Part shown: one piece after another, positions 3-29,337 of the stretch
Numbering within the stretch: the stretch's first letter is position 1
Layout: every line of letters starts with the position of its first letter
Origin: Candidatus Thorarchaeota archaeon
Lineage (GTDB): Archaea > Asgardarchaeota > Thorarchaeia > Thorarchaeales > Thorarchaeaceae
Assembly (NCBI GenBank): GCA_029855935.1
Contig: JAGSHN010000008.1
Span: 1 to 56,017 of the forward strand
Direction of reading: 5' to 3'
DNA: 56,017 nucleotides
The notes under the pieces: generated by a model
Told to the model about the DNA's origin: nothing
The model's input: the letters and a program-made list of their open reading frames with translations, nothing else
Databases searched by the model: none
Program-made: the position numbers and the translations under genes

Positions 3-893
3 ATGGGGTCAACCAACTACCAAGATGCCTTGGAGAAGACGATTCAGCTGGTCGAACACCTCAGGGTGACGGACGGCTATGGCGACAACGTCGGCGGCGT
101 GCAGGCAGGGACCGTTCTCTTCTTCTCGGATGGGAAACCGGACTTCGGAAGGGCAAGGGAGGACTTGGTCTTCCAGATTGTGGGTCGTGGCTTCACATTC
201 CACACAATGGGCCTCGGAGGGGGCGTCGAGCCGACAACCCTGCTCTCAATGGCCGAGAACGGCGGTGGACTGTACAGGCACGCAAATACGGAGGACGAGC
301 TTCAGGAGCATCTCAATCACGTCCTGTCGTTCTCTCAGAACCTCGTCTTCTCTGCGCCCAAACTGGAGATCAACGTGATGCCAGGAGCGAGGCTCAACAA
401 CGTGTGTCTCATCGCTCCACCAAGACAGCTTGTGGACAGTATCCCCGAAGGGGGGAGCGAGACTGTGACTCTGCCCGACATTCAGGCGGGGGGAATGCTA
501 GAGATAGGATATGAGGTGTGCGTTGACAATCCCGGGAGCGAGGGCCAGACACAGGACCTCATTGAGTGGAGAATTGGTGGTGCGCCACCCACAATGACGC
601 GAGTCCGCTGGGTGTCGCTTGAAGAGGCAATGATTCAGAGGCCCAATACCAGACCCACCATTGCAATGTCAATCTATCAGGGCATGTCTGCGGTGATGAG
701 TGGAGATACTCGAAGGGCGGAGGAGATCCAGAAGCGTCTGACCAAGCTCGGCCAGACGGATCCGTTCGCAGCCACCGGGGCCACAGTGGTCAGCAAGACC
801 ATCGAGGTGGGCAAGACAGGCAACCTAGGAGAACTGTTTATGCAGGTGACCCACACACGCACGAGGCGCGACGGAGGACTGGAGGTCGAATGA
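3..893 (+). CDS. von Willebrand factor A (vWA) domain protein, probably 5'-truncated by the window edge
   Basis: GSTNYQDAL, VLFFSDG, HTMGLG and LLSMAENGGGLY match the C-terminal half of a vWA/MIDAS fold. The DxSxS motif would lie upstream of the window. Confidence 0.75.
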   Translation: MGSTNYQDALEKTIQLVEHLRVTDGYGDNVGGVQAGTVLFFSDGKPDFGRAREDLVFQIVGRGFTFHTMGLGGGVEPTTLLSMAENGGGLYRHANTEDELQEHLNHVLSFSQNLVFSAPKLEINVMPGARLNNVCLIAPPRQLVDSIPEGGSETVTLPDIQAGGMLEIGYEVCVDNPGSEGQTQDLIEWRIGGAPPTMTRVRWVSLEEAMIQRPNTRPTIAMSIYQGMSAVMSGDTRRAEEIQKRLTKLGQTDPFAATGATVVSKTIEVGKTGNLGELFMQVTHTRTRRDGGLEVE

Positions 894-894
894 A

Positions 895-2193
895 TTGGTG
901 AAATGCGAGATATGCGGACAGAAGCTGGTACCAGACGACCTGGCATTTGGCCTGTGTCCTAACTGCAACACTCCGATATCGGATGAGGCGCGGGAGAGGC
1001 TGCTCAAGGAGGCAGGGGTCGGAGGTACATCTGAGCCCCCAGAGGAAGGCAAGGGAAAGAAGCCGGCTGAACTCCCGCAGACTGCACAGTGCAAGTCATG
1101 CGGCGCAGCAATGCCTCTCGATGCATACAATGCGGGCACGCCCTGTCCCAGCTGTGGAGCAGACCCGAGGGTAGAACCGACCCCAGAGGGCTTGCAGCCC
1201 TCCGGTCCGGGGCCTCAGCCGCGGAGTTCTGGCGGAGGCGTGCAGATAGAAGGGCCAACATCGGAGGATCAACAACAGTCTGTGTCAGCGCCCGGGAGTT
1301 CCAGTGGGGGCGTGCAGGTTCCGCCTGATTCCTCTCCATCAAAAGGAGTCGAAGCGGCCGTGGAGCCTGAGGGCAAAACTCCACCCCCTGACTCGGTGGC
1401 TGTGTCCCAACCTTCAGGGCGACCCCCATCAGGTGAGGTCAATGTTGTTCTCGTCATTGGCGAGCTGGCAGGCAAGGAGATTGCATTGCCTCAAGACACA
1501 GACCTTGGGCGCGACGAGCTGGCCGCCATAGCCGGAAGCCGCTTCAAGGGTCTTGACGCGGTATCTCGCAGGCACTTCAAGTTCATCCTGACAGATGACC
1601 ACCTGTACATCACGGATCTAGGCTCAAAGAACGGTACGAGGGTCAACCAGGAGGAGCCCTGTGCGCCCAACGTGCTGAAGAGAGTCGAGATCAACGACAG
1701 GATAGTACTTGCTAATGGCGCCGTCGTCCTGAGGGTGACAGGCTACACTCAAGCAAAGGCAGCGATACCGCCACCGTACAGACTAAGAGACGAGGAGTCG
1801 GGGGTCACATACCCACTATACCTGACGAGCCCTGAGATCATTGGGAGGAGTCCCGTCCAGGGCGGGCCGCCGCATCCCTTCATTGAGGACATCTTCTATC
1901 ATATGATTGTCACAGACGGAGACAAGGAGAAGGCAAAGAACCGCATTGGTACAATCTCCCGGAAACAGCTGGAGCTGTTTTGTCCCAAGACCCCGACATC
2001 GGACTGGACGGGCGACCCGTCAGGAGGACAATACGAGCAGACGGTGAAGGTGATCAATCACTCACGGTACGGCACAATCGTGAATGGTCAGAAGCTCTCC
2101 AGCCCCGGAGACAGCGTCACAGTCCCGGTCACGTCACTCCCTATCACCATCGAGGTTGGAGCGTCCTTCAGATGGATACTCGAACGGGCCTGA
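895..2193 (+). CDS. Zn-ribbon + double FHA domain protein
   Basis: Four CxxC pairs at the N-terminus, then a Ser/Pro-rich linker. FHA1: LGR...VSRRH...DLGSKNGTRVN. FHA2: IIGRS...ISRKQ...SRYGTIVNG. TTG start 1 nt after the vWA stop. Confidence 0.85.
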   Translation: MVKCEICGQKLVPDDLAFGLCPNCNTPISDEARERLLKEAGVGGTSEPPEEGKGKKPAELPQTAQCKSCGAAMPLDAYNAGTPCPSCGADPRVEPTPEGLQPSGPGPQPRSSGGGVQIEGPTSEDQQQSVSAPGSSSGGVQVPPDSSPSKGVEAAVEPEGKTPPPDSVAVSQPSGRPPSGEVNVVLVIGELAGKEIALPQDTDLGRDELAAIAGSRFKGLDAVSRRHFKFILTDDHLYITDLGSKNGTRVNQEEPCAPNVLKRVEINDRIVLANGAVVLRVTGYTQAKAAIPPPYRLRDEESGVTYPLYLTSPEIIGRSPVQGGPPHPFIEDIFYHMIVTDGDKEKAKNRIGTISRKQLELFCPKTPTSDWTGDPSGGQYEQTVKVINHSRYGTIVNGQKLSSPGDSVTVPVTSLPITIEVGASFRWILERA

Positions 2194-2331
2194 GGACGTG
2201 TCCGCCCTATGACGGGAAGACGTGAGATGGAGGCCCGTCAATCGGAATCTGACCTGCTGACCTCTAGGCACAAGGACAGGTCCGGATGGGCTGAAACCCA
2301 GTAGTATGGGAACAAGAGGAAGTCGAGTGCA

Positions 2332-5300
2332 ATGGAAGCGCCAAGCTATGATCTCCGAGAGGAGGATGTTGAGTCAACTCGCGCGAGGTATCCCGGTGAC
2401 AATGCCGGTGTGACGACTCTAGAGGACCCAGTGAGCAAGAAGCCACAAGTGTCAGAGCCCCCGTCCGACGAGGAGAGAAGGGGACTCGATGACGGTACTG
2501 CGGACGCAGAGCCTACTCGCAACGAAGTCGAAACGGACAACGAAGGGGATGGCTCCTCAGAGTCGGGATCCGGAGAGGCTACCCGCAAAGAGACAAGAGA
2601 GGTCGAGACAACGGGACCTCTACGGCCGGAGGAGCTTGAGGAGATTGCTGGCGGCGAGACCGTTGTTGGCGCGCGGCGCGAACTCTCTCGCGGTCCTGAG
2701 GCTGCTGACTGGACCCCGCAGCTTGGAGAGGTACCGAAGAGTCCCATCTCCGTCGTCTACGCAATAGGCGATCTCCATGGCTGGGCGCCCGCGCTGATCA
2801 CGTACCTAGTAAACAATGGGCTCGCAAAGATAGAGGTCAACGGTGTCCAGCTCTACAAGACGGGCCGGGACGGGAAGATGAGTGTTGACACGAACAAGAT
2901 GGACCTGGTCTTTCCGCATCCTCAAGAGTACTTCAAGCAGAACGGCACGTTTCCCAGAGGCGTCTTTCGGGACTTCGGTGTCGACGAGATGATTGTGCAC
3001 AATGAGGGTATTCACTCCGTGAGGGCTGAATGGGTCGCGCCCGACAACGTGGCGCTCGTGCAGATTGGCGACATCTTCGACCGTGGGGACTACAGCGAGC
3101 TTGCAACAGAGATACTCAGACAGCTCGTCATCCAGGCGCCATTCAGGGTATTTGTCCTGACTGGTAATCACGAGCAGTTCCTGCTTGAGAACGATCTTGC
3201 CACTTGGCTGATGAACGAACAGAGGTTCAGTCACCTCTCCCTCCACGGTGACAAGGCCTTCCACACCCGGTTTCACGAGAAGACCTACGGCTGGAGAGTC
3301 GCAGACGAGGACACCATCCGCCGCGAGGTCTTCGACAGATATCGTATCTCAGCAACGCTGCTCTACCTGACCCAGTACGCAGCAATGGTCAGAGCAGGAG
3401 AGGCTGCTGGTGTCAGACTGCCGTCGACAGGTCGCAACACCCTCGACCTGGACAAGATTCTCAATGGCGGGTGGGATGCCTACAGATACGCCTGGGAGAT
3501 TGCAAGCGACGGCAGGTTCTCAAAGGGAGCGACGTTCCCCGGGGCCATCGTGCTGCTCGGACTCGGTCACGCACTCTTCGTCCACGCCGACCCTCTGGCG
3601 TTCAATAAGGTGGACATCGGCGGTGTCAAGGACTCCCTCAGCAGGGTCAAACTCCCCGGAGGGACCGACCTTGTGTTCCTGTTCTACGATACGGGCTCGA
3701 AGGGTGGGCAGAGCTCGAGACACGTGTCGCTGCTCTGGTCCAGAGGGGCAGAGGAGGGATCTACTGCAGAGATTCCCCGACCACGCGCGGCGGAGGCGGC
3801 GCACAACATCATCTCGGTCTTTCCAGGGACTCGACACTACGTGCACGGTCACAGCCCCACACCGATAACGAAGACGTTTATGGGCCTCAGTCCAAACTGC
3901 CCGATCACCTACCTTGCGCGAAACGCCGACGAGATTGTCGACGCCGAGCGGGGGAGCATCCGAGTCCACGTGATTGATGAGGGCATCACACCAGTCTATC
4001 GGGCCGGCGTCGCAGATGTCTACGACCCAGCTCTGGAGCCTGTTGGCCTGAGGGTCCACCCAGACCTTGTAGGTTTTCAGGATGCAGACTCGACCAGGGT
4101 CGAGACAGACAGCTCTCACTGGTTGAGGCTCATAGATTCGACGGACTTCCCTGAGTTCACAGTACCGGAGCGTCTTGCCCTCCTTGAGCCGACGAAGATA
4201 GGACGTTTCTCTCCCGGCATGAGCGTGTGGTCTGATGAAACCGCCCACCCAGAGGACCCACGACACAGGTTCACTATGCCTTGGCCGAGGATCAAGACGA
4301 CACACAGATGGTATCATTCCTCTCCGCAGGAGCCTCTCGGGAGTACTGCGGCGTTTCTCATCTATCCGACAACAGCGAAGGGCTTCTCCCGTCCGGAGCG
4401 TCTCTATATTCTGTCGAAGAGAGTCAACGTGTCTGTGGATGAGGTGTTGTTCGACTTTGGGGTCGAGTCCACCCTCGCATGGTTGACCGACAGAGATGTG
4501 AGCCGGCCCCTTGCTCTGCCTGAGGACCAGAAGGGAGAAGACTGGTTGAAGAACATCCACAGACCGGAGAAGGTCCTGAAGGACTACCTTGGGGTGCTGA
4601 GCAATGAGGGGCCAGGTGCCCTCCTCACTCAAGTGGGGATGGTGTTTGCACTGCTCACCATTGGAAAGGATGGAAGGCTTGCCGTCTTCGTGGCAAACGG
4701 TTCCGACCGTGATATCTATGTCGGCGTACGCCACCTCAACTCGGAAGACGGAGGCGAGCGAGGAATCTTTAGAGTGGACCGGTATTCCTGGAACCTCCGC
4801 ATATCAGACAGGTCACTCGGCGAGGATCCTGCGGTCTTCCTGGCACTGGGCGACGGTGAGAGAGATCTTGACCCTCCACGTGAGATACTCAAGACCGCTC
4901 TCAGTGACCTTGCCGCCAGCGAGATAAAACGCGGGCTGCTACAGGTCAGGGGCGCAGCCTGTCTACTGTGGTTCGGTGGGCGCCTTGACCGTGTTGTCGT
5001 TCGCAGTGACACCTCCGGAATCCTCGCCAGTCCGATGGCCGAGACGATGGTACTCTCATCAAGCACACGGGAGAGGGCGTCGGCTGCCCAATCAGACTCT
5101 GCCGCGCGAACACCAGAAAAGGCTGCTGACGCCTCACGTATCGCGGACGATAGACGGCCGCTGAAGAGCCATAGGGACGTTGCGCAGGCGCACCGGCCGC
5201 AGGGTCAAGTCAGGCCGGGAGAACCACGGGCACAACCGCCACGGCGCGCAAGTCCTGAGCGCGATTCAGAGTTACAGGCTGCGCTCGCTCGTGGAAAGCA

Positions 5301-5898
5301 ACATCTGCGAGGGCCGACGGGCGGGGCGCTCCGCCACGCTCCGCCTCCACCGCTGGGTAAGAAAGGTAGTACTGGCCATGTTCCCAGCAGGGCTGTGCCG
5401 AGCGGTTCTAGTCACGACGGGCATCGGGGAAAGATGGTCTCACCGCCCAAGTCATCTCCCGGCGTGGGGGAGGCAATTGTGAGAGGGGCACGCAAGGGGG
5501 TAGGCAGAGTATTCGGGGCAATCAAGTCCATCGGAGAGGGCGGAGGAAAGGTTCAGAAGATTGTACTCAGGCTGGAGAGACCAGCCAAACGGATTCTCCC
5601 TGTCGAAATAGGAGTGACGGTAGACGCCGAAGTTCTCTCACGATTTGATGTGAGAGCTCACCACGTCGACCCGAGCACACGATTCCTGTTTCACGTGGAG
5701 CGGGGAGCGATACACATCACAAACCTCTCCGGCGAGACGATGATCGTTGATGGAAAGAAGCTCAAGACCGGAAGGTCCACTCCCGTCAAGGTCGGAACGA
5801 GGTTTGTCGTCGGCCGAGCCACGTTTAGCGTTCACACCCTACCAAAGGTGAAGGACAAAATGGGCGGAGGCGGTCGCGGTCTTGGAGGACATGGATGA
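2332..5898 (+). CDS. Calcineurin-like (PPP-family) metallophosphoesterase, multidomain, with C-terminal FHA-like domain
   Basis: GDLHG, GDIFDRG, GNHE and HGHS motifs in order. Acidic disordered N-terminus, Pro/Arg-rich linker, and a C-terminal ITNLSGETMIVDG beta domain. Confidence 0.85.
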   Translation: MEAPSYDLREEDVESTRARYPGDNAGVTTLEDPVSKKPQVSEPPSDEERRGLDDGTADAEPTRNEVETDNEGDGSSESGSGEATRKETREVETTGPLRPEELEEIAGGETVVGARRELSRGPEAADWTPQLGEVPKSPISVVYAIGDLHGWAPALITYLVNNGLAKIEVNGVQLYKTGRDGKMSVDTNKMDLVFPHPQEYFKQNGTFPRGVFRDFGVDEMIVHNEGIHSVRAEWVAPDNVALVQIGDIFDRGDYSELATEILRQLVIQAPFRVFVLTGNHEQFLLENDLATWLMNEQRFSHLSLHGDKAFHTRFHEKTYGWRVADEDTIRREVFDRYRISATLLYLTQYAAMVRAGEAAGVRLPSTGRNTLDLDKILNGGWDAYRYAWEIASDGRFSKGATFPGAIVLLGLGHALFVHADPLAFNKVDIGGVKDSLSRVKLPGGTDLVFLFYDTGSKGGQSSRHVSLLWSRGAEEGSTAEIPRPRAAEAAHNIISVFPGTRHYVHGHSPTPITKTFMGLSPNCPITYLARNADEIVDAERGSIRVHVIDEGITPVYRAGVADVYDPALEPVGLRVHPDLVGFQDADSTRVETDSSHWLRLIDSTDFPEFTVPERLALLEPTKIGRFSPGMSVWSDETAHPEDPRHRFTMPWPRIKTTHRWYHSSPQEPLGSTAAFLIYPTTAKGFSRPERLYILSKRVNVSVDEVLFDFGVESTLAWLTDRDVSRPLALPEDQKGEDWLKNIHRPEKVLKDYLGVLSNEGPGALLTQVGMVFALLTIGKDGRLAVFVANGSDRDIYVGVRHLNSEDGGERGIFRVDRYSWNLRISDRSLGEDPAVFLALGDGERDLDPPREILKTALSDLAASEIKRGLLQVRGAACLLWFGGRLDRVVVRSDTSGILASPMAETMVLSSSTRERASAAQSDSAARTPEKAADASRIADDRRPLKSHRDVAQAHRPQGQVRPGEPRAQPPRRASPERDSELQAALARGKQHLRGPTGGALRHAPPPPLGKKGSTGHVPSRAVPSGSSHDGHRGKMVSPPKSSPGVGEAIVRGARKGVGRVFGAIKSIGEGGGKVQKIVLRLERPAKRILPVEIGVTVDAEVLSRFDVRAHHVDPSTRFLFHVERGAIHITNLSGETMIVDGKKLKTGRSTPVKVGTRFVVGRATFSVHTLPKVKDKMGGGGRGLGGHG

Positions 5899-5922
5899 TC
5901 GTCAACGCGAGGGGGTGATGCG

Positions 5923-7215
5923 ATGATAGCGAACCGAGGACTTGTGGCCCTGAATCCGGGGGATGTCTTTGAGGACCTGGACACGGGACGGATGTTCGAA
6001 GTAGCGGAACATCTTGGCACTGGCGGGTTTGGTTCCACCTACTTTGTCACGGACAGTTCGTCAGGAGACAGGCTCGTTGCAAAGCTTCCTGTGATAACAG
6101 GTGACAAGCAGAACGACGAGTACAGAATCCGCAAGACGGAGCACGAGGGCGAGGTACTCAAGACTCTGCTCGACAACGGCGTTCCGCACGTGGTTCCCTT
6201 CAGGGGCCAGTTCGAGACCGAGATAGCAGGTCACAGGGTTCCTGTTGTGTTGATGGAAGTCGCTCGAGGGACTACCCTTGATGACTACATATTCAAAGAG
6301 CTGCAGGCACCGATGAAGGAGGACGAGGCACGAGAGCTCCTGCTGCAGCTCTGCACGGCGCTGCAGGGAGTGCACAGTCTTGGCATTGTCCATCGAGACA
6401 TCAAGCCGGACAACATATTCATCGACACTCAGCAGCCGGAGCGAGATCTCACGCTGATTGACTTTGGCATCGCCGCACTCTACGATAACTCAAAGACCTA
6501 CGACAAGGTAACGGCCGTGGGGACTCCATTCTTCTCTGCACCTGAGGGTATGTATCAAGGATTCGTGTCGTTCAGCGCGGACGTTTTCTCGGTGGGCGCG
6601 GTAGGTTTCTTCCTGTTGACCGCTCAGCAGCCCGCAGGGCTGAGAGGAGGATACGACCCGCGGCTCTACGAGCGTAAGGGCTTCCCGGTATCGGATGACA
6701 TCGCGCAGGTGATAGTGAAGGCCACGTGGGAGGACTTCAAGCTCCGCTACCCCACGATTGAGGACCTGATGAATGCCATCCGTGGAAGGCCACCGCTGCA
6801 TCTGATGCCACGGATAATAGTGGACGGCACATCCTACGCGATTGACAAGGACCTCATCATCATCGGTAGTGCTCGTGTCGGCTCAAGTGTCGACATTGCG
6901 ATTACGGAGAGAACGCAGGACGGCAAGTACTACATCTCTCGCAAGCACTGCTACATCAAGCTGTGCGACGACGGGCTCTACAGGCTCTACGATGGTTCTC
7001 CTGAGGGCCGTCCCAGCACCAATGGCACCGTCTGGTTGGACAAGCGTGGCAACTGGAGACGCATCCCAAGAGAGGGCCTTGTCCTTGGCAACTCGCCCTA
7101 TATGATCGGTCTGGGCTACTCGGAACCGAGAACGGGAACGGGCCGTGATATGTTCGGCCATGAGAGAATCCCTCGCGTGTACCGGACGATTGAGTACCGC
7201 CCACCCGGGACGTGA
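5923..7215 (+). CDS. Hanks-type Ser/Thr protein kinase with C-terminal FHA domain
   Basis: LGTGGFG, VAK, HRDIKPDN, DFG, APE and DVFSVG. FHA motifs ISRKH and STNGT. Confidence 0.93.
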   Translation: MIANRGLVALNPGDVFEDLDTGRMFEVAEHLGTGGFGSTYFVTDSSSGDRLVAKLPVITGDKQNDEYRIRKTEHEGEVLKTLLDNGVPHVVPFRGQFETEIAGHRVPVVLMEVARGTTLDDYIFKELQAPMKEDEARELLLQLCTALQGVHSLGIVHRDIKPDNIFIDTQQPERDLTLIDFGIAALYDNSKTYDKVTAVGTPFFSAPEGMYQGFVSFSADVFSVGAVGFFLLTAQQPAGLRGGYDPRLYERKGFPVSDDIAQVIVKATWEDFKLRYPTIEDLMNAIRGRPPLHLMPRIIVDGTSYAIDKDLIIIGSARVGSSVDIAITERTQDGKYYISRKHCYIKLCDDGLYRLYDGSPEGRPSTNGTVWLDKRGNWRRIPREGLVLGNSPYMIGLGYSEPRTGTGRDMFGHERIPRVYRTIEYRPPGT

Positions 7216-7253
7216 CCCGAGCTCTCTAACACTGACAGTGTTGCAGAACGACA

Positions 7254-8924
7254 TCACAGCAAGGCGAGTTGACGGACCATCTCGGCCAGAGGATGATTCG
7301 GGTACCTTCGTAGCCAGTCCCCAACCTTGTTTCGCCAGCGGTCGTCAGTCTCACTCGTCACGTGTGTCACTATGATGTCTGCGAGGTCCAGCATAGGCGA
7401 GTCCTCACCTGACAGTGCAGTGTCATAGGATCTTCTTAGAATGCCCAAGATCTCGCCGGTGGCGTGAATCACGTCGGGGTGCGTCGCCCAGTCGTTGTAG
7501 ACGATCAGTGAGGACAGGGTCTCGATACGGTGGATGTTGTCGGGAGGTCGAGACCGGACAGAGTTGTGAAGGTCTTCAAGCAGCCGGACTGTCTCGGGCG
7601 GTACCTGCCCCTCCCCCCACGGCGGATTGAGAGTACGTATCAGCGACCGCAACAGTCTCCAGACGCAGGCATCTCGTGGACCGCTCTTCAGTCGCTGGTC
7701 CGCCTCAACAAGCATGGTGAGACTCAGATTGAAGGTTCTCATCGTGTGCGACTCTGGAGCAATGAGCACGGCAACGGGAAGCACCACAAGTCGCTCTCTT
7801 GGACTCAGGGATGCGACGTCGGGATATCTCGGCGAGCCAAACCAACGCCTCAATGAGGAACTCAGCGAGGTTGACGCGGCGAGCATTCTGCACAGGTCAA
7901 GGAGGGCAGGACTGTCCCCACGATCGAGCGAGTGCCCAGTGGAGTAGCAGACCGCTGGCAAAACACGTTCGAGGACATCTACGTCAGGCCTCGCGCCGTG
8001 GACCTGAAAGACCTCGTGAAGCCAGGTCACATCGGGCATTGGGTATCTCATATTGCGGTATGCCCAATCAATCGTATCGGGCGACCAGCTCTGTACGAGT
8101 CGCAGGATGTCCTCAAGGGGACGGTCCGAGAGTTGCGACGGTGCTGGCACGACCACTGCAAGAGAGGCCCGGGCGGACCACTCACTACGGGATGTCGAAC
8201 GGCTGTCAAACACGGCGTCCACGAATCTGCTCGTAGACGACTTGGCACCGTCACTACCTGGGCCCAGCCGTCTGAGCCAGGCCTCGATGATGTCAATCTG
8301 TCTGATATGCGGCAGCCTCCACACGTCAGGGGCCATCCACTCCTCCGGTAGCCGTCCAACGTGACCCTCAGAGAGTCTCCACGGTGTCTTGGAGGCTAGG
8401 AAGTCGGTGCCGAGTGTGATGAGTGCGGCGACCCACGCCAGAGGCCCCGGATGCTGCGGACCTGTGTGTCCCACCCCGGCGAACTGAATGTCTGTCGGCG
8501 TGATGTAGACCAAGGAGGGCGAGAGAGTAACAGAGCTGTCCTCAGCCGCATCGATGGCGCTCTGAAAAGAAGCAATGAACAATCTGACGATGTCCCCCGA
8601 TGGGTACCTGCCAGATGCCTGAGCGGACTGAATCACCATATCGAGGCGCTGGGCATCGTTGAGGATCAGGACCTCTGGCGGTCCGGCGAGCTTCTGAATG
8701 ACCGTAGGAAGCCCTCTCTGACCGGACTTTCTGGAGACCGCACTGGACGCGCCAACGAGGAACCGAAACCATTGCCGGCGTGTGGACGAATACAGTGCTC
8801 CGCCCCAGACATCCCTGTCCAGAGGTTCGTCAACAGCGAACCTCTCAACGCCTCCCAGGGCAGTGTCAAGAGCCCTCTTCACCTCATCCTCTGCCCTCAT
8901 CCGTCGAGAGACCTCCGTTCCCAA
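7254..8924 (-). CDS. Hypothetical protein; possible pseudokinase N-terminus plus helical C-terminus
   Basis: 556-aa ORF at the end of the minus-strand operon. RFAVDEPL...GGALY and LSPSLVYIT..DIQFAG resemble degenerate kinase subdomains I and VIb-VII. Confidence 0.6.
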   Translation of the reverse strand: MGTEVSRRMRAEDEVKRALDTALGGVERFAVDEPLDRDVWGGALYSSTRRQWFRFLVGASSAVSRKSGQRGLPTVIQKLAGPPEVLILNDAQRLDMVIQSAQASGRYPSGDIVRLFIASFQSAIDAAEDSSVTLSPSLVYITPTDIQFAGVGHTGPQHPGPLAWVAALITLGTDFLASKTPWRLSEGHVGRLPEEWMAPDVWRLPHIRQIDIIEAWLRRLGPGSDGAKSSTSRFVDAVFDSRSTSRSEWSARASLAVVVPAPSQLSDRPLEDILRLVQSWSPDTIDWAYRNMRYPMPDVTWLHEVFQVHGARPDVDVLERVLPAVCYSTGHSLDRGDSPALLDLCRMLAASTSLSSSLRRWFGSPRYPDVASLSPRERLVVLPVAVLIAPESHTMRTFNLSLTMLVEADQRLKSGPRDACVWRLLRSLIRTLNPPWGEGQVPPETVRLLEDLHNSVRSRPPDNIHRIETLSSLIVYNDWATHPDVIHATGEILGILRRSYDTALSGEDSPMLDLADIIVTHVTSETDDRWRNKVGDWLRRYPNHPLAEMVRQLALL

Positions 8925-8979
8925 TCACTGTATTCCAACATCGCCGATGCGAGAGTGAGCCAGAGTAGCTGGACGCGTG

Positions 8980-11316
8980 TCATTTGTTGCCCCCATACCT
9001 ATCGCCCTCGGAATGGGCCACAACGTTCCCGTCCGGGTCAATCAGCCACCAGCGGTCCTTCTTGAGCATTCTTCTCTCGACAGCGAGGACATACCTGCCG
9101 GACTCCTCAATCCTCTCTCGAGAGGAGCTATAGAAGGAGCATTTGTCGAGCGGCAACATAGCAATCTCAGGGGTCTCGCCGTCAGGACCTGCCTGTGCCA
9201 CTGTACTCATAGCCTGTACGGAGAGACTGTAGCGAATCAGCGCAAGTGTTGATCCCTCAGCTTGCTCGAGGCGTTTCTGGTCACAACGCGGACACTTGTC
9301 TCTCCCCTCGCCCTCAGGCTGAATGAAGCGGCAGAGAGCGCAACCGTGACCCTTCAGGGACCCTCCGTATGCCTCTACATCCCACACCTCTGCACAGTCG
9401 GGACACACGGGAATCACGATTCCGAAGGGACTCTGGAAGTCCTTGTCGGGCCGTGTGCGCTGGCACAGCCAGCAGTGTCTCTGGTGGCCCTTGCAGTAGT
9501 ACGTTGTCCTCTTTCTCCTACCTGATGTGTCCTCCACCTCCAGCATCTCAGACTTCAGGTAGAACAGGTCCTTGCCAGTCTCTTCCCTGCAGAGCTCACA
9601 TCGGGCAGACAGGCTCCGCTCTGCTATCCTGCCGTCTGCAAGACGCCGGCTCTCTGTGGTGGCAATGACATCTCCTGTCACGTCGCTCTTGACCGCGTGT
9701 CTCTTGCAGAGGTACGTACCGCGCTTCGAGTGCTGCCTCATACTGCTCTTCAGATACATAGCTGGCCTACCCGACTTCGCGCACACCTCGCACTCCTCGG
9801 CGAGGTCTCTCGCAACGGTCTTCCCTGATGCAAGCTCCACGACCTCAGAGGGTGTGTATACCCGGCCCGTGACACTACAGACGGCAGTGTGCTGAGGACA
9901 TAGTGGCGCCCCGGTCAGACTGTGATGGCTCACACTGCTGGCAAGCCACCACGGGTTTGCAGCGCCGTTCTGTGCACACACAGCGCACTCGGATGCCTCT
10001 GCCCTGTAGACCCTCTTGCCCCCATTGACAACTACTGTCTCGTCGGGCTGAACGATGACGCCTGACGCCTCGCACCTGACGGCGTGATCAGGACAGAGGG
10101 GAGCATTCGTGAAGGAGTGGTGAATGACCGCATCAGGGGCAAGCCACGCGCCACACGCTGCGCACTCTATGTGACACTTGACACAATAGGTGCCGCTGCC
10201 ATAGTCGGCCTCCCGGACGCCCGAGGCGAGTGTCACCCTGCCGCAGTTCGGGCAACGGGCCAGTGTCGGAGGAGCTTCGACTGGCCGGCCAAGTTCAAGC
10301 GGGACCGTCGCGTCAAGGTCGATGTCTGCACACTTCAGACGCACGATGGCCGGGTCCTCGATGTGCCAAGCCGCCAGCACGTTGACCTTGGGGCCTCCAT
10401 CAGGGAGCTGAAAGACGAGCTCTCCTGTCACCATAGTCCTCATCCGAAGCACTACTGCTGAGTTCACGGCAATGATGGGCGGGGTGGATATCTCTCTACG
10501 GTACTCACGAATCCTGCGGTCGTGACTAGTGATTATCTCCCTAGGCTGGCCCTCCTGTTTTGCAATCCTTCTCTGCATCTGCTCTGTCCGGAGGCGGCGC
10601 AGCCGTCGTAGAAACGCTCCGTCCTTGCGCTGCGCGTCGAGTATCTTGGCCACGACAACATCGGCTGCGGTCTCGATTGCCCGTTCCACCTCCTCCAGCG
10701 ACATCCTGAGGGAGGGCTCCACCTCTTCGACCGACAGCAATGAGCCTCGCCGTCGGACGTGCGCCCTCTGAATGTCCGGGCTCCAGCTCCATCGGGTCTG
10801 ACCATTCTGGGTGACCCGTGTCACGACAACAGGGAAGACCCCTCTATTGCCACGTGACTCGTACTCCAGCCACACCTCTACCGCGCTGCACTCGGCACGT
10901 TCAGTGGGGTCATCAATCTCTATGGGAGTGGCCCCGACAGCATAGAATGGCGGTGTCAGCCAGTCAAGGAATTGACTCAGATCAATCTCATTCTCGTGCC
11001 GGTACTCAGCATAGTGGACAGGTACGTAGTCGAGCCCTCTTGTGAGGGCCTCCACTAGAGGGTGATGCATCGTGACCAACACAACGGTGGTCGATGGGTC
11101 AACAAAGGGCTCGACCACATCACGGGGGTCGAATTTCAAGAGGTATTGCCCTGCTCCCGGCAGACCGAACACTGATGCTGAGACCTCGTCCAGCACCGTC
11201 TTCAGACCCGGACCAGCCTCCTCGACCTCCACGCCCTGTTCTCGCAGGCGGGCGGAGACGAAGTCCCTGAGCTCGTCGCGCGGGTCGCGAGTGTCAAAGG
11301 GATGTGCTATTGTCAT
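8980..11316 (-). CDS. Cys/His-rich Zn-binding repeat protein; SNF2-partner (YqhG-like position)
   Basis: ATGA overlap with the helicase stop. Central coiled coil, then repeated CxxC...HH/QH...LCxxH...CxxxG units. Confidence 0.7.
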   Translation of the reverse strand: MTIAHPFDTRDPRDELRDFVSARLREQGVEVEEAGPGLKTVLDEVSASVFGLPGAGQYLLKFDPRDVVEPFVDPSTTVVLVTMHHPLVEALTRGLDYVPVHYAEYRHENEIDLSQFLDWLTPPFYAVGATPIEIDDPTERAECSAVEVWLEYESRGNRGVFPVVVTRVTQNGQTRWSWSPDIQRAHVRRRGSLLSVEEVEPSLRMSLEEVERAIETAADVVVAKILDAQRKDGAFLRRLRRLRTEQMQRRIAKQEGQPREIITSHDRRIREYRREISTPPIIAVNSAVVLRMRTMVTGELVFQLPDGGPKVNVLAAWHIEDPAIVRLKCADIDLDATVPLELGRPVEAPPTLARCPNCGRVTLASGVREADYGSGTYCVKCHIECAACGAWLAPDAVIHHSFTNAPLCPDHAVRCEASGVIVQPDETVVVNGGKRVYRAEASECAVCAQNGAANPWWLASSVSHHSLTGAPLCPQHTAVCSVTGRVYTPSEVVELASGKTVARDLAEECEVCAKSGRPAMYLKSSMRQHSKRGTYLCKRHAVKSDVTGDVIATTESRRLADGRIAERSLSARCELCREETGKDLFYLKSEMLEVEDTSGRRKRTTYYCKGHQRHCWLCQRTRPDKDFQSPFGIVIPVCPDCAEVWDVEAYGGSLKGHGCALCRFIQPEGEGRDKCPRCDQKRLEQAEGSTLALIRYSLSVQAMSTVAQAGPDGETPEIAMLPLDKCSFYSSSRERIEESGRYVLAVERRMLKKDRWWLIDPDGNVVAHSEGDRYGGNK

Positions 11317-14300
11317 CCGATGGCCACCCCCTCTGCGCCCTCTCGCTGCGCGTCCTTCTGACGTTCCTCGTCCGCCTCTGTAGGCAACACAATCTGGCGG
11401 CGAGCCTCGAGCTTCCGTGCTGCCTCCATCAGCCTCTTGAACTGGGTCCTCATCTGCTGCCTCTTTATGCGTCCCTCAAGATAGGCGTTGTACAGTTCGT
11501 CGACCTGCTTTGTGATGTCAATAGACGAGTAGAGGCTCACCAAGTCGAGCTCGCCGACTGTCTCTTGGAATAGCAGAAGGTAGTCCTTATAGGCCTCCCA
11601 GAGAGCCTTCTCCTCCTTGAGGTCGTACATAATGGTCGCGACGAAGACCATCGGATTCCTCTGTCTCAGCCGCTGAACACGGCCAATCCTCTGTTCCAGC
11701 TCTACAGGTGATCTCGGCAGGTCCATATTGATGAGGAAGTTACCGTACTGAAGATTCAGTCCACGGGACTGAGCCCGGCCGCAGACCAGGACCTCGATCT
11801 CGCCCCGATTGAACCGCCTCAGCAGGTTCTGCCGATCCATAATGCTCATCCCTGTCGTGAAGCCGTCTATCGCAACACTTGGCATTGCCCGCTTCAGGGT
11901 CTTGAGAATGGCATCGCGACCAAGATTTGTCCCTGCAAACACGATGACCGGAGAGACACCAAGACCTGCTGAGTCAACCTCCCACTCACCCATCTTGACC
12001 TTCTGCCTTGTTGTCTGATGCCTCTTGAGCACATCGATCAGTGCCCTGAGCTTCGGGTCGCTCATCATCCTGCCAGGGTCGCTGAATATCTCCTCAGTCT
12101 CCTGCAGAATGATTCTGATGGCTGACTTCACATCCTTGCTGAATCCTCGTCTGCGGAGAAGAAGGCGCAGCTGAGTCGCCGTCCGTGACTCCTTGCCCGT
12201 CTTCGTCCGTTGGTGAATGGCCAGCGCGAGTTCGTTAACCGACTGAGTGAACCAGCGGAAGAGGACCCGGCCTATACGTTGAACGTCGTCCCCCTCCGCA
12301 AGCAGTTGGCGAATGGCTCTCTCGATCCTCTTCTCGGACTTGCCAAGCTGGACGATGATGTTCTTCGCCTCCCTCTTCGGGAAGATTATGCTGGGCACAT
12401 CTGCCCGCGTATGACGAATCATCACTTGGGAGAGCAGACCGCGGAGCTGCCTGAGGTCCTGAAGGGACGCTGTTGAACCGTATCTCTTTGCGAATTCCCT
12501 GTAGTCTCCAGCAAGGATTGGGTCGATGGCTCGTATCATAGGGTAGATCTCAGATGGAGACCTCTTCATCGGTGTGGCTGTCACAAGCAGGAGATATCTC
12601 GGGTCCAGTCGGTACAGCCTCTGCCATCTACGACCCTCTGGACTTGCCCCCAGCTCGTGGGCCTCGTCAACGACGACGGCATCCCACTTTATGCGACTCG
12701 GCTCGAAGAGCTCCCACGTACTGTCGACATCTTTTGGATAGATGTCGGCATAGGCCTCAGGGATTGGACGGTCCTCAAGAGCGTGCCAGAAGGTCGCGAT
12801 GATCCGCTCGCCCTCGACAGGCCGGGGCTCGCCCGGCTCCCAGATCCTGAAGCCGCCGGGGTCATCGGGTCCGAGGTGGAACTTCTCGTCGAGCTCCGAG
12901 AGCCACTGGTACTGTAGCTCGCTGCTCGGCACAAGAATCAGAATGGAGTCAATCAGGTCACGGTAGATGAGCTCTCTCAAGATTATGCCGCACTCGATGG
13001 TCTTGCCCAGTCCCACGCTGTCAGCGATTATGCATCTGCCGTCGAGGTCCCTCAATGCTCTGAGGACGGTGTCCTCTTGATGCTCGAACGGCTTGATGTC
13101 CAGTGAATAGTAGACCTCAAGCGTTTCGAACCTGATACCAGACCTCGCAAAGGCCAGCATCGACTTTGGCGTGGGCGTCGGCGTATTGATCAGCCGCAGC
13201 CGGCCCCCTCTGACCACCCGCGGTGTCTTCGGTGCCAACAGAGGGTCGCTGGACTTGCAGATGCTCTTGTGGATCTTCCAGAGCTCATAGTTCGTTGTGG
13301 ACCAATAGCAGTTTGGACAGGTGTAGAGCATGATGTCGGATGTCGATCTGGAGCCACCACCACCATCAGTCTGGACATTGGGATGCGCCTCTGCGTAGTG
13401 AGCGTTCAGCGAACTCAGCGGCACCTCCTTCGAGCAGACGGGACAGACCGCAGTCGGGCTCTCATAGACAAGAGGAGTCAGACAGTGATAGCAGAGAGCC
13501 CAGCCCGGTGCGGTCGGCGCCCCACACTCAGGGTTGGGGCACAGTTCGTGGACCTTCTTTCGTCGTAGTCCAGCCACGGTTGCGCGTCGTATGAGCCTCG
13601 CAAAATCGCGGATCGTGGGCCTCTTCTGTGGAGGCTGTTCCCAGCAGTCCCTGCATAGTGATATGAACTCCTTTAGAGCGTGATTGGTCAGTACCCATTG
13701 CGGCCATCCCCTCTCCGGACCCGCGTTTGCGTCTCCGCGAATGTCGCCCTCCAGCACCCAGTAGAACAAAAGACCCAGGGAGAACATATCGTGCCACGGC
13801 TGAGCGGGCGTCCCGGGTACCAGCTGGTCATGGTCTGCCCAGTCCCTTGAGCCCTCGCCATGCCCCAGCTCGCCGATTCTCAGTGCTATGCCAAGGTCTA
13901 TGAGTGCGACTGTGCCGTCCTCCGCATAGAGCACGTTCCGCGGGTTGATGTCCCGATGGACGAGGCCAAGATCCACATGAAGGTGATACACAAGACCAAT
14001 GAGGCGCTGAGCGAAGTTCAGGAATCTCTCCTCGCTGTCCTCTCTGTCAAGAAACGGGTTCTCGCCGTTGCCCCGGTCCTTGAGAATGACCGACAGAGGC
14101 TGTCCCTCATAGTAGCGCCGGTAGGATGTGTATCCGCCGGGGCCGCTGTCGTCCTCGTAGACGGCGTGCTGAAAGCCGGACTTGACAATCTTGGAGAGAA
14201 TTCGATGCTCGCGACGGATGAGATCAGCATAGTCGGGACTCAGAGCACGCTTTCCGACATAGAGCCTTCCCACACTGTCGTTGAGGTCGCGGAAGAGAAC

Positions 14301-14366
14301 TATCTCTGCTTGGCCGCCGCGCGCGAGAACACGTACCTCTTGCCACCTGAACCGCCGCGCCGGCAC
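11313..14366 (-). CDS. Ser/Thr kinase - Zn fingers - SNF2/RapA(YqhH)-like helicase fusion
   Basis: Kinase motifs LARGGQA, VGK, HRDINPRN, DLG and DMFSLG. CxxC and C2H2 fingers follow. Helicase motifs ADSVGLGKT, DEAH, TATP, GLNLQ and QRIGRVQR. Confidence 0.9.
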   Translation of the reverse strand: MPARRFRWQEVRVLARGGQAEIVLFRDLNDSVGRLYVGKRALSPDYADLIRREHRILSKIVKSGFQHAVYEDDSGPGGYTSYRRYYEGQPLSVILKDRGNGENPFLDREDSEERFLNFAQRLIGLVYHLHVDLGLVHRDINPRNVLYAEDGTVALIDLGIALRIGELGHGEGSRDWADHDQLVPGTPAQPWHDMFSLGLLFYWVLEGDIRGDANAGPERGWPQWVLTNHALKEFISLCRDCWEQPPQKRPTIRDFARLIRRATVAGLRRKKVHELCPNPECGAPTAPGWALCYHCLTPLVYESPTAVCPVCSKEVPLSSLNAHYAEAHPNVQTDGGGGSRSTSDIMLYTCPNCYWSTTNYELWKIHKSICKSSDPLLAPKTPRVVRGGRLRLINTPTPTPKSMLAFARSGIRFETLEVYYSLDIKPFEHQEDTVLRALRDLDGRCIIADSVGLGKTIECGIILRELIYRDLIDSILILVPSSELQYQWLSELDEKFHLGPDDPGGFRIWEPGEPRPVEGERIIATFWHALEDRPIPEAYADIYPKDVDSTWELFEPSRIKWDAVVVDEAHELGASPEGRRWQRLYRLDPRYLLLVTATPMKRSPSEIYPMIRAIDPILAGDYREFAKRYGSTASLQDLRQLRGLLSQVMIRHTRADVPSIIFPKREAKNIIVQLGKSEKRIERAIRQLLAEGDDVQRIGRVLFRWFTQSVNELALAIHQRTKTGKESRTATQLRLLLRRRGFSKDVKSAIRIILQETEEIFSDPGRMMSDPKLRALIDVLKRHQTTRQKVKMGEWEVDSAGLGVSPVIVFAGTNLGRDAILKTLKRAMPSVAIDGFTTGMSIMDRQNLLRRFNRGEIEVLVCGRAQSRGLNLQYGNFLINMDLPRSPVELEQRIGRVQRLRQRNPMVFVATIMYDLKEEKALWEAYKDYLLLFQETVGELDLVSLYSSIDITKQVDELYNAYLEGRIKRQQMRTQFKRLMEAARKLEARRQIVLPTEADEERQKDAQREGAEGVAIG

Positions 14367-14373
14367 TGTCGAT

Positions 14374-14847
14374 TCACCCCTTTATCTTGAAGACCCACCA
14401 CGGACCGAGGAGGCCCCACAGAACCTGCCCTCGGCCTACCCCCATAGGCTCACTGCCTGCACCAGCATCAGCAACCCACTTGCCTTGGCTCGACAGGACA
14501 GCCACACCCTGACCGAGCCACCGGACATTGCCGTTCACATTCCAGACCACAAGTGCTGCGCCGTCAAATCGCAGACCGGGGTCCACCATCACGTGATCAA
14601 TATCTGCAATGTCAACGTCTTCAATGGGGAACATTCGCCCAATCCTGACGCCCCTCCCCTCACGAAGGACAAAAGAGAACGTTGCGGGCTGTCCTGGTCG
14701 AATGTCCAGAAGTGTGAGTGAGGGTGCAGCAAGCTCTCTCTGGGCCGGTGCTGCAAGACCTGAACTCGGAGGATGCAGGTCTGCCCAAGAACTCACGGTC
14801 TTTCTGAGCCGCTCGGGGTCAAGGAACTCTGTGACTTCCGCTCCCAA
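14374..14847 (-). CDS. Small FHA-like beta-sandwich protein
   Basis: VRIGR...DVDI and a beta-rich pattern, but no SxxH. Ends 7 nt before the kinase-helicase start. Confidence 0.5.
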   Translation of the reverse strand: MGAEVTEFLDPERLRKTVSSWADLHPPSSGLAAPAQRELAAPSLTLLDIRPGQPATFSFVLREGRGVRIGRMFPIEDVDIADIDHVMVDPGLRFDGAALVVWNVNGNVRWLGQGVAVLSSQGKWVADAGAGSEPMGVGRGQVLWGLLGPWWVFKIKG

Positions 14848-15170
14848 CTAAAGGCACCTAGCTACCGGTTCTTGGGGGACCTGAGCACGCTGACGGGATA
14901 TAACAGTTGTTTGCCTTGACCATCGGATGCGTTCTGGCAGTTCCTCCGCTATTCTCGCCGATTCCCAGTCTCGGCGGGGGATCAGAGACAGTATGACTCG
15001 CTTGGACTGACAACTACTGGACAACTCTGCGAGCGCAGAGGCACTCAAAGAGCGCTTGCGTATTCCGCTGGTGCTAGATAGAGTGACAGTCCCAGTTTCC
15101 AGTTGGAGGATTGTGCAGCACGGGAAAAGAACATTGCTGGGTTCAGCAGACACGTACGGAGATGATGTAG

Positions 15171-15641
15171 ATGGTCTGCTCCAAGTCATTCAGGGCGTGG
15201 GCAATAGTAACAGCCGTTTCGGCTGCATTGCTGGCAAGAATGGCTGGATTGCATCCTGTACTGATTGCCGTCTCGACTGGTCTCATGGGATATGTTCTGG
15301 TACTGCTCGTGCCCAGTATCGTTCTCGAATCGGTCCGCAATCGAATCAGAGTATAGGACGGCGGAAAAGAGATTGAAGAATGCAGCGAGACAAGAATGAG
15401 CTCAGTACTCATTGACTACGCGGAGAGAAGCGTGTTGTTTGTGGCGCTCCTCGTAGGCCACTCTGAGTCATCAGTAACTGTGAAGGACATCTTGAACGTG
15501 ACTGTGGTACTACTAGCTGCGAAACTCTTCAGGAAGACTGAGAAGGGAATCTGTGAAGACTGGTACATTATGGGAACATTTGCAAGCGTTGCAATGGCAT
15601 TCTTCCTCTCGTGGTTGACCTTCCCCGTACTTATGCCGTGA
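15171..15641 (+). pseudogene. Membrane protein (DUF3307 C-terminus-like) interrupted by in-frame TAG at 15354-15356
   Basis: ORFs 15171-15356 and 15396-15641 share a frame separated by a single TAG. Motifs YAER..LF, LLAAKLFR and WYIMGTFAS. Confidence 0.5.
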
Positions 15642-16122: not shown

Positions 16123-16315
16123 GAGACAGAATGTAGGACTTGATGCCGTCCTGTGACTGGCAAGCCCACAACCACCAGTGGCAGTAGGCGTTGTTGCTTA
16201 CTGCTCTTCTTCATTTTGCCATTCCAGACCACTGTGCGCGTCACGCCCGGAGGTCGTCTTGGCCACCAGAAGACATAACGGGCACCGACGAGGGAAGAAC
16301 AGCGGTGAAAACGCA

Positions 16316-29238: not shown

Positions 29239-29337
29239 AAACCGCGCACCAAGGCGGCGACTTCGATTCGGTTGGCATCGAAGAGGAACTGTACACAGAA
29301 GACATAATACATGGGCCGTGCGACGGGGCTTGGGTGG

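Follow-up and report, generated by a model that had tools for sequence, protein, structure and literature searches.

The window analysed here is a 56,017-nt stretch beginning at the start of contig JAGSHN010000008.1 from a Candidatus Thorarchaeota archaeon, and its first part (positions 3-14847) carries eight genuine genes in two convergent operons. A sequence-only reading of this DNA had described the same eight clustered genes as a convergent double operon, and all eight ORFs were confirmed at the coordinates given below. The plus-strand operon codes for a vWA protein (g1), a Zn-ribbon/FHA protein (g2), a PPP phosphatase (g3), and an FHA-bearing Hanks kinase (g4); the minus-strand operon codes for a small protein (g8), a kinase-Zn-ribbon-SNF2 fusion (g7), and proteins of 778 aa (g6) and 556 aa (g5). 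Pfam families were assigned to g1, g2, g3, g4, and g7, and none to g5, g6, or g8. Only 1 nt separates g1 from g2, and the g7 and g6 reading frames overlap by 4 nt. The convergent stop codons are separated by a 38-nt spacer, inside which the sequence reads as a 15-nt palindrome (7228..7242, no strand assigned; 7-bp arms and a 1-nt centre) that may serve both operons as a terminator or else be a binding site. The genes flanking the locus code for ChrB_C, a secreted nuclease, and beta-helix surface proteins, with no defence genes among them.

Because the window begins at the contig start, g1 (3..893, plus strand) is missing ~104 codons at its 5′ end, among them those for the DxSxS MIDAS motif, and the 296 codons present are the 3′ part of an ArnB-like vWA gene, matched by Pfam as a VWA_3 fragment. 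The complete gene is found in a second assembly of the same strain (400 aa, L005 8797-9999), and the full-length protein scores 46.5 bits with VWA_2, above the Pfam VWA cut-offs. In the family alignment, full-length g1 and its homologues have the MIDAS residues DxSxS...T...D and share a Thr-rich, basic C-terminal tail, T-x-T-[KR]-[KR]-D. The best PDB sequence match is to vWA2 (5a8j), although it is marginal (E 0.024) and restricted to the vWA part. The adjacent g2 (895..2193, plus strand; Pfam FHA and DZR) codes for an ArnA-like reader with two N-terminal Zn ribbons, the double ribbon corresponding to DZR, followed by a disordered linker and two FHA domains. FHA1 is above the Pfam cut-off (E 7e-13), whereas FHA2 is sub-threshold (E 0.006), yet has conserved GR...SRxQ...NxSxxGT residues; the GR / SxxH / NGT motifs are conserved across the family alignment, and PDB profile matches are to the FHA domains of OdhI/GarA.

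The PPP-family Ser/Thr phosphatase g3 (2332..5898, plus strand; Pfam Metallophos) has the PPP domain first, then a conserved middle domain without a recognised fold, a basic disordered linker, and a C-terminus with only a weak likeness to FHA domains (hhalign P 0.002). Its PPP motifs GDxHG, GDxxDRG, GNHE, and HGH are intact and conserved in the family alignment. The C-terminal reader domain is missing in one homologue, the Lokiarchaeia copy, and a second g3 copy exists in a decayed state. The Hanks-type Ser/Thr kinase g4 (5923..7215, plus strand) matches Pfam Pkinase (E 6e-35) and FHA (22.7 bits, with a cut-off of 20.7), and has an invariant EYRPP motif at its C-terminus. Its catalytic residues are complete, with K54, E75, HRD157-159, and DFG180-182 all invariant in the family alignment.

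In the minus-strand operon, g7 (11313..14366, minus strand) joins a Hanks-type kinase (residues 1-~265), through three Zn-binding modules (~270-375), to a RapA/DrmD/DpdE-like SNF2 ATPase core (~420-1000), recognised by Pfam as Pkinase, DZR, and SNF2/Helicase_C. Conserved residues in the family alignment include K39, HRD137-139, N144, and DLG157-159, together with GLGKT and DEAH. The g7 of the window reads HRDINPRN where homologues read HRDIKPxN, and the g4 homologue in locus L008 reads HRDVTPDN, so that one or other kinase could be weakened in some lineages; the SNF2 gene of L008 carries a nonsense codon. From their intact motifs, we predict that the g4 and g7 kinases are active as writers and the g3 phosphatase as an eraser, and together with the FHA domains these bear out the earlier proposal that writers, eraser, and readers are encoded in one locus. 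RapA is an RNA-polymerase-recycling ATPase, and the g7 SNF2 core scores 132.3 bits against the NCBIfam RapA model PRK04914 (cut-off 576; model positions 167-635 of 959); it ranks as a relative and not an equivalog. A Tudor-like RNAP-binding N-terminus was not found in g7, whose first 420 residues are occupied by the kinase and Zn ribbons.

The AF2 model of g6 (8980..11316, minus strand; pLDDT 82.9) begins with a RapA-CTD/YqhG-like domain (residues 1-~340), continues as a series of Zn-binding repeats of ~65 aa, and closes with a small domain at the C-terminus. The top five Foldseek matches in the PDB are all to E. coli RapA (E 2e-4 to 1e-2), VIA-align places the N-terminus on RapA residues 708-967 (Z 8.0, which alone is borderline, over 235 residues with an rmsd of ~10 A), and the shape matches in the Atlas include YqhG (TM 0.48/0.52) and RapA_C. 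Giant bacterial proteins also join Zn-ribbon arrays of the g6 type to SNF2 cores. The models indicate that the g6 N-terminus provides a RapA_C-like domain in trans, and the SNF2 enzyme would therefore be a split RapA-like motor.

The 556-aa g5 protein (7254..8924, minus strand) is modelled by AF2 (pLDDT 76.7) as a kinase fold (~10-224) followed by a helical-repeat domain (~260-556). Foldseek places Cex1p, a pseudokinase with HEAT repeats, on top, with the remaining matches to kinases, and residues 10-224 align by VIA-align with ~500 kinase chains at Z 9-11.4, including PKR, the Rv3910 pseudokinase, PknI, and RIPK2. None of the four homologues retains HRD or DFG, the equivalent positions reading V-[TC]-L and Q/I-F-x-G. 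Because the predicted kinase fold, a model from four sequences, lacks the catalytic residues, we assign g5 as a pseudokinase, and the possible pseudokinase of the sequence-only reading can be placed at this gene. The identity of g5, and the RapA-CTD/YqhG-like module and Zn-ribbon array of g6, are new in this analysis.

The first gene of the SNF2 operon, g8 (14374..14847, minus strand), codes for a small conserved protein whose homologues hold the same position in four other loci. Language-model features in the Atlas place it near FHA clusters (0.93, with only 134 features shared), whereas hhalign, Pfam, and a PDB sequence search gave no support for an FHA domain, and the pThr-binding residues are not conserved; g8 may be a degenerate FHA-like beta protein. 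The suggestion of up to five FHA or FHA-like domains thus holds for three (both in g2, and that of g4), and the other two, the g3 C-terminus and g8, are leads only. The locus as a whole codes for two kinases, a PPP phosphatase, and a SNF2 core with intact catalytic motifs, at least three FHA domains, a MIDAS vWA protein, and a pseudokinase. A genome-wide Pfam scan found FHA matches only in these eight genes, along with two of the three Pkinase matches in the genome, in keeping with the earlier description of the switch as self-contained.

All eight families recur in the convergent layout in three further archaeal lineages, with 21-51% identity and 28-59% GC: L008 (a MAG labelled Thermoproteota/Korarchaeota), L090/L091 (Lokiarchaeia), and L092/L093 (28% GC). 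Because the gene set is syntenic in these three, the clustering is far beyond chance. A search of 399 other Asgard genomes did not find the full gene set, with g5 and g3 in none of them and close g1 relatives likewise not found, and 1.84 billion representatives include just four full-length members of the g6 family. Could the two operons be an unrelated signalling cassette and SNF2 helicase cassette that merely abut? The convergent arrangement, with no common promoter, would allow this. However, both sets are present on every contig long enough to show both, in all four lineages; the linkage is kept in L092, in which the vWA and ZnR-FHA pair has been relocated to the opposite end; both sets are equally rare; and kinase folds occur on both sides, while the FHA readers have almost no other genomic kinases to read. 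We regard mere adjacency, already disfavoured, as very improbable. The operons are strictly co-inherited as one conserved unit, and the gene-neighbourhood search is in keeping with the earlier view of one functional unit, with co-occurrence in four lineages, one of them rearranged. The co-occurrence statistics are thin because only four lineages are known.

We propose that the locus is one eight-gene accessory system, in which an ArnA/ArnB-type phosphothreonine switch probably controls a Swi2/Snf2 ATPase complex that is RapA-like, split, and fused to a kinase. The order of signalling is drawn at every step by analogy with ArnA/ArnB and Rv3910-FhaA. In the resting state, the Zn ribbons of g2 would hold it loosely on the vWA hub g1, and the phosphatase g3 would keep the system unphosphorylated. 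A trigger, possibly an encounter of the SNF2 complex with abnormal DNA or a stalled transcription complex, would activate the g7 and/or g4 kinases, which would place pThr marks on the T-x-T-[KR]-[KR]-D tail of g1 and on SNF2-side proteins, with the pseudokinase g5 serving as a docking platform. The FHA domains of g2, g4, and g3 could then bind these sites and so assemble or release a motor that pairs the g7 core with the g6 RapA-CTD-like/Zn-ribbon subunit and that would act on DNA or RNA polymerase; g3, brought in by its own reader domain, would remove the marks and reset the switch.

What the motor is for is a separate question. An alternative is that the locus is a host gene-regulation module, in which an ArnAB-type switch uses a RapA-like RNAP-recycling ATPase to relay nutrient or DNA-damage signals to transcription, adjusting host expression in the way that ArnA/ArnB adjust archaellum and DNA-damage genes in the Sulfolobales. 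ArnA and ArnB regulate host genes and do not themselves bind DNA (PMC12852372, PMC10470591), RapA is an RNAP-associated recycling factor (PDB 4s20 and 8t0l are among the fold matches), and a bacterial SNF2 protein with the same Zn-ribbon array has housekeeping neighbours, groESL and a sigma-70 gene. No recognisable trigger sensor or effector (nuclease, toxin, or methylase) was found at the locus, and the lack of an effector domain, with flanks free of defence genes, also fits a regulatory role. Such a module would be expected in close relatives, yet the locus was not found in four congeners and 85 family members, and the genomes that do carry it are spread across Thor-, Loki-, and Thermoproteota labels. 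One paralogue has decayed, defence-type neighbours occur at two of the five loci (NERD genes adjoin two loci and an Mrr-like REase adjoins one), and a kinase stands in place of the RapA RNAP-binding N-terminal domain. We consider host regulation rather unlikely, and because of the patchy distribution, decayed copies, and occasional nuclease neighbours, a conflict or stress-response role is somewhat more likely than housekeeping regulation.

The earlier proposal of a DNA translocase acting in virus defence is no more than an inference: the SNF2 enzyme is RapA-like, the locus has no nuclease or toxin effector, and defence-type neighbours are seen at just two of five loci. A more specific form of the conflict role, which we put forward tentatively as a possibility, is a hitherto undescribed, checkpoint-like pThr circuit of FHA-kinase, FHA-phosphatase, FHA adaptor, vWA hub, and pseudokinase scaffold that licenses a SNF2 chromatin, DNA, or RNAP motor when foreign or damaged DNA is met. 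It would be an immune or genome-surveillance module and, in Asgard archaea, a prokaryotic counterpart of the Rad53/Chk2-to-SNF2-remodeller axis of eukaryotes.

A 2026 structural paper concluded that ArnA/ArnB-type switches probably act via other DNA-binding proteins. The switch described here is genetically wired to one candidate output, a RapA-like SNF2 protein with its own kinase and pseudokinase scaffold, and as a compact eight-gene system insulated from the rest of the cell it offers a direct test bed for pThr-reader control of a nucleic-acid motor. It further records, in archaea and among them two Asgard lineages, a kinase-SNF2 fusion together with a split RapA architecture. Should it prove to serve defence, its type would be new, with a logic of phospho-signalling, not of nucleotide signalling or DNA modification. 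Its general importance is limited by extreme rarity: in some 15 billion proteins, it is known from about four lineages.

In a scan of all eight proteins, no PADLOC or NCBIfam system matched the locus, the hits being sub-threshold ones to helicases and kinases only, and the sequence-only reading was right that no named system is matched in full. It had taken TerY-P (vWA, PP2C, and kinase) as its reference, and one could ask whether the locus belongs to that defence family or is an accessory to DISARM, Dpd, or BREX. The theme of vWA, phosphatase, and kinase is shared, and there are sub-threshold matches of g7 to DrmD, DpdE, and BrxH, and of g4 to PD-T4-6, mad6, and PglW; BrxHII is itself RapA-like (PMC12839542), and DISARM DrmD, Dpd DpdE, and BREX BrxHI/HII are the best-scoring PADLOC/NCBIfam families for the g7 core. 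However, the phosphatase is PPP, not PP2C, and no PADLOC model was matched at E<=0.01 by truncated g1, full-length g1, or three homologues. The NCBIfam scores of g7 are far under their cut-offs (DpdE 172, cut-off 500; DrmD 151, cut-off 950), none of those helicases is described with a kinase fused to it, and neither the eight proteins (PADLOC, NCBIfam) nor the genes neighbouring the locus include DrmA/B/C, a methylase, DpdA-K, or PglZ/BrxC/PglX. Membership in any of these systems is thus extremely improbable. Bacterial vWA-STPK-FHA-PP2C operons, such as the TerY-P triad and T6SS PpkA/PppA/Fha1, similarly bring together a vWA protein, Ser/Thr kinase, FHA reader, and phosphatase, and in Deinococcus DRA0331-0334 the phosphatase, too, carries a fused FHA domain (bioRxiv 10.64898/2026.01.23.701218), but these use PP2C and have no SNF2, pseudokinase, or Zn-ribbon-array partner.

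On the SNF2 side, the closest parallels are RapA (HepA), of which g7 and the g6 N-terminus correspond to the core and the C-terminal fold, and YqhH/YqhG, since yqhH (SNF2) and yqhG adjoin in B. subtilis (PMC6123443) much as the g7 core gene adjoins the CTD-like g6. Unlike RapA, g7 has a kinase and Zn ribbons replacing the Tudor-like N-terminus, the CTD-like protein bears a Zn-ribbon array, the host is archaeal, and the NCBIfam score is well below the cut-off. The dead kinase fold of g5 amid FHA readers and Hanks kinases recalls M. tuberculosis Rv3910 (MviN)-FhaA (PDB 3oun), and this complex, in which the FhaA FHA domain binds the Rv3910 pseudokinase domain, ranks among the best structural matches to g5 (Z 11.3); g5 differs in being cytosolic, in its fusion to helical repeats rather than a membrane flippase, and in having no sequence similarity to Rv3910.

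The plus-strand operon fits an ArnA/ArnB-type module better than TerY-P, and its nearest known counterpart is ArnA/ArnB with the Hanks kinases and PPP phosphatase PP2A of Sulfolobus. ArnB and vWA2 combine a vWA domain with a beta-sandwich and a C-terminal helical bundle that carries the pThr sites. In Sulfolobus acidocaldarius, ArnA/ArnB work with the kinases ArnC/ArnD and the phosphatase PP2A (PMC6509490, PMC7472852, PMC12852372), and bind in two states, first through the ZnF and then the FHA domain (PMC12852372). Shared features are the adjacent genes for a vWA protein with an intact MIDAS and a Zn-finger-FHA protein, Hanks-type kinases as writer and a PPP-family phosphatase as eraser, a Thr-rich basic g1 tail resembling the ArnB pThr sites (PMC6509490), and two vWA paralogues in the Lokiarchaeia copy, as with vWA2/ArnB. 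The sequence similarity of g1 to ArnB is marginal, and the organisation differs: the kinase and phosphatase are in the same operon, each with its own FHA or FHA-like domain, Zn ribbons and FHA domains come in pairs in the g2 reader, and the module is accessory rather than lineage-wide and hard-linked to a SNF2 operon, a coupling that we did not find in the literature searched.

Eight ORFs lie in two convergent operons within window positions 3-14847. Contig C3 begins with this window, and its genome measures 2.97 Mb and is 97% complete. The genes are tightly packed, with a 1-nt gap between g1 and g2, a 4-nt overlap of g7 and g6, and a 7-nt gap between g8 and g7. Where the operons meet, 38 nt separate the stop codons of g4 and g5, and a perfect 15-nt palindrome with 7-bp arms (7228-7242) is centred in this gap. 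We considered a 113-aa ORF upstream of g8 (14848-15189) as a ninth gene and rejected it; it belongs to no family, none of the other loci has a counterpart, and a TATA-like promoter region overlaps with it. Positions 16178-16885, immediately downstream of the system, code for a protein with a ChrB_C domain (chromate-resistance regulator family, E 4e-36), which has ~70% identity to its equivalents in two congeners but has a different neighbourhood there; a search for the insertion site in congeners using this gene and the flanking prenyltransferase gene found that synteny is not conserved. Genes at 19129-21174, 25454-28207, and 29311-32673 code for a secreted nuclease that combines Exo_endo_phos with Ig, fn3, and lamin-tail domains, and for two large surface proteins of the NosD/beta-helix type. 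Two other loci (L003 and L090) likewise have beta-helix giants near the system, which may be coincidence in these archaea.

On the plus strand, the vWA gene g1 (3-893) is cut by the contig end, and full-length g1 was taken from another assembly of the same strain (L005:8785-9999), where the frame is open from position 8797. This open frame and the homologues point to 400 aa, with the MIDAS DxSxS included, and the deposited start (348 aa) is too far downstream; the full-length form has the DxSxS...T...D MIDAS residues and scores above the Pfam VWA cut-offs. All five members of the g1 family end in T-x-T-[KR]-[KR]-D. The g2 product (895-2193) has two CxxC...CPxC Zn ribbons followed by a linker and two FHA domains, and g3 (2332-5898) codes for a PPP phosphatase with every signature motif of the catalytic domain, followed by a conserved middle domain. 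The g4 product (5923-7215) is a Hanks kinase in which all catalytic residues are invariant, with a canonical FHA domain and an EYRPP tail that is likewise invariant.

On the minus strand, g7 (11313-14366) codes for a fusion of a Hanks-type kinase with conserved K39, HRD, N144, and DLG, three Zn-binding modules, and a SNF2 core with GLGKT and DEAH; the kinase motif reads HRDINPRN in the window copy versus HRDIKPxN in its relatives. The best curated matches of g7 are DpdE, DrmD, and RapA, all far under their cut-offs. No family could be assigned to the adjacent g6 (8980-11316), and a direct Pfam scan of its N-terminus for YqhG or RapA_C found neither even at E<=5. YqhG and RapA_C clusters are nonetheless its matches in both language-model and shape searches, so that the link is one of fold and language-model features: for residues 1-345 modelled with AF2 (pLDDT 82.9), the five best Foldseek matches are all Escherichia coli RapA, and the model aligns with RapA residues 708-967 (Z 8.0). 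Since g7 covers only positions 167-635 of the 959 in the RapA model and the g6 N-terminus resembles the later segment, we predict that g7 and g6 together are a split RapA-like enzyme with its RNAP-binding N-terminus replaced by a kinase. Beyond this segment, g6 consists of an array in which a ~65-aa CxxC...CxxHx3-4C unit occurs four to six times, and a full HMMER search places the same array at the C-terminus of bacterial SNF2 proteins of 1400-2100 aa. Three such giants (P0040, P0042, and P0043; 1545-2098 aa) carry g6-like ~65-aa repeats C-terminally, and one of the three has groESL on one side and a sigma-70 gene on the other; together they look like an uncharacterised RapA-like subfamily.

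The sequence-only reading had proposed a possible pseudokinase, and structure prediction for g5 (7254-8924, minus strand) agrees with it. The AF2 model (pLDDT 76.7) has a kinase fold matching PKR, PknI, RIPK2, and the Rv3910 pseudokinase (Z 9-11.4 over ~200 residues), and both HRD and DFG are missing from every g5 homologue. Helical repeats follow the kinase fold, and the best Foldseek match is Cex1p, a pseudokinase-HEAT protein. A complex prediction for g4 with g5 scored 0.01 and gives no answer for or against binding.

The same reading had counted up to five FHA or FHA-like domains. Three of these stand, one in g4 and two in g2, where FHA1 matches at E 7e-13 and FHA2 at E 0.006, yet with GR, SRxQ, and NxSxxGT conserved in FHA2. 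The g3 C-terminus is weakly FHA-like and is found in two of three full-length homologues, and the conserved small protein g8 (14374-14847, minus strand) appears FHA-like by language-model features alone; searching the PDB with a profile of the g8 family gave no match at E<=10, and hhalign of g8 against the FHA domains of the locus did no better than controls. Genome-wide, Pfam FHA matches are confined to g2 and g4, and Pkinase matches to g4, g7, and one 221-aa ORF elsewhere, so by these matches the system's FHA readers appear to have essentially no other writers in the genome to read.

The proposal that the two operons are one unit is borne out by recurrence of the eight-gene set in other archaea. 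A 28.9-kb contig from a MAG labelled Thermoproteota/Korarchaeota (L008) carries, in map order, vWA, Zn-ribbon-FHA, PPP, and kinase-FHA genes converging on genes for a 531-aa protein, an 816-aa protein, the kinase-SNF2 fusion, and a 162-aa protein; seven of the eight window proteins have homology to it by tblastn, and g8 through its family alignment. The Lokiarchaeia locus (L090/L091) has the same layout plus a second vWA gene. A locus of 28% GC (L092/L093) has the SNF2 operon converging on the kinase-FHA and phosphatase genes, with the vWA and Zn-ribbon-FHA pair at the opposite end, where it diverges from g8; the contig of a further locus, L004, ends too early for its layout to be judged. Identities between loci fall at 21-51%, and the GC content of the loci spans 28-59%, which makes the arrangement an old one that has been maintained. 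It is also rare. The g7 fusion has only three close relatives among 5.8 billion clusters, full-length members of the g6 family number four among 1.84 billion representatives, and the g6 alignment, scanned against metagenome contigs, picked up the L008 contig alone. Searches of the genomes of 399 other Asgard species, four congeners included, turned up no close relatives of g5, g3, or g1, and thus both halves are equally rare. Scanning genome contigs with the g7 alignment gave 80 bacterial SNF2 loci (L010-L089; 22-39% identity) that match the helicase part alone, and among these, relatives of the other system genes were absent except for one generic kinase match (L072). The nearest bacterial relatives of the helicase core are in Vicinamibacterales, Verrucomicrobiota, Alphaproteobacteria, and others, and the conserved neighbours at these loci are giant proteins unrelated to the system: 36 loci have an upstream ORF of ~2500 aa, and 26 have a downstream ORF of ~1540 aa.

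We consider it very likely that the locus is a single unit joining a phosphorylation switch to a motor. We suggest a phospho-licensing mechanism, in which the RapA-like motor would be assembled or licensed phospho-dependently and the FHA-guided phosphatase would reset the switch. As to what such a unit serves, we lean towards conflict or stress. The system is patchily distributed, and a fragment at the very start of another contig of this genome (G000:C30:76-606; L095) has 57% identity to g3 residues 604-780, is broken by several in-frame stops, and is what remains of a second phosphatase gene copy. The L008 kinase-SNF2 gene contains a single in-frame stop (L008:18700-18822, minus strand) at a Tyr conserved in relatives, because of which it is annotated as two genes (597 and 356 aa); possible explanations are a pseudogene, a sequencing error, and recoding. 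NERD-domain genes adjoin two divergent loci (L008:5147-6199 and L004:2217-3278), coding for proteins of similar size that are 43% identical in the core, and an Mrr-like type IV restriction enzyme gene adjoins one (L004:3296-4621); these may be facultative nuclease partners or mere defence-island neighbours. Against a conflict role, no effector is recognisable, the window flanks are ordinary, and one bacterial SNF2 protein with the same Zn-ribbon array occurs in a housekeeping context. Viral contigs scanned with g7 and g4 yielded no relatives. That the switch and motor instead serve host regulation seems to us rather unlikely.

No system in PADLOC or NCBIfam matches the locus, in line with the sequence-only reading, which did not recognise the arrangement, and the literature searched gave no description of a coupled switch-SNF2 system or of such a kinase-SNF2 fusion. 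The sequence-only reading had likened the locus to TerY-P, but it does not belong there, given its phosphatase type and the lack of a match to the vWA models. The plus operon appears closest to the ArnA/ArnB module of Sulfolobus, which includes Hanks kinases and a PPP phosphatase, and the ArnB paralogue vWA2 is the best PDB sequence match of g1. There, the ArnA Zn finger holds ArnB loosely until ArnC phosphorylates the ArnB C-terminal bundle and binding switches to the FHA domain (PMC6509490, PMC12852372). Another analogue of the plus operon is found in bacterial vWA-STPK-FHA-PP2C operons (bioRxiv 10.64898/2026.01.23.701218).
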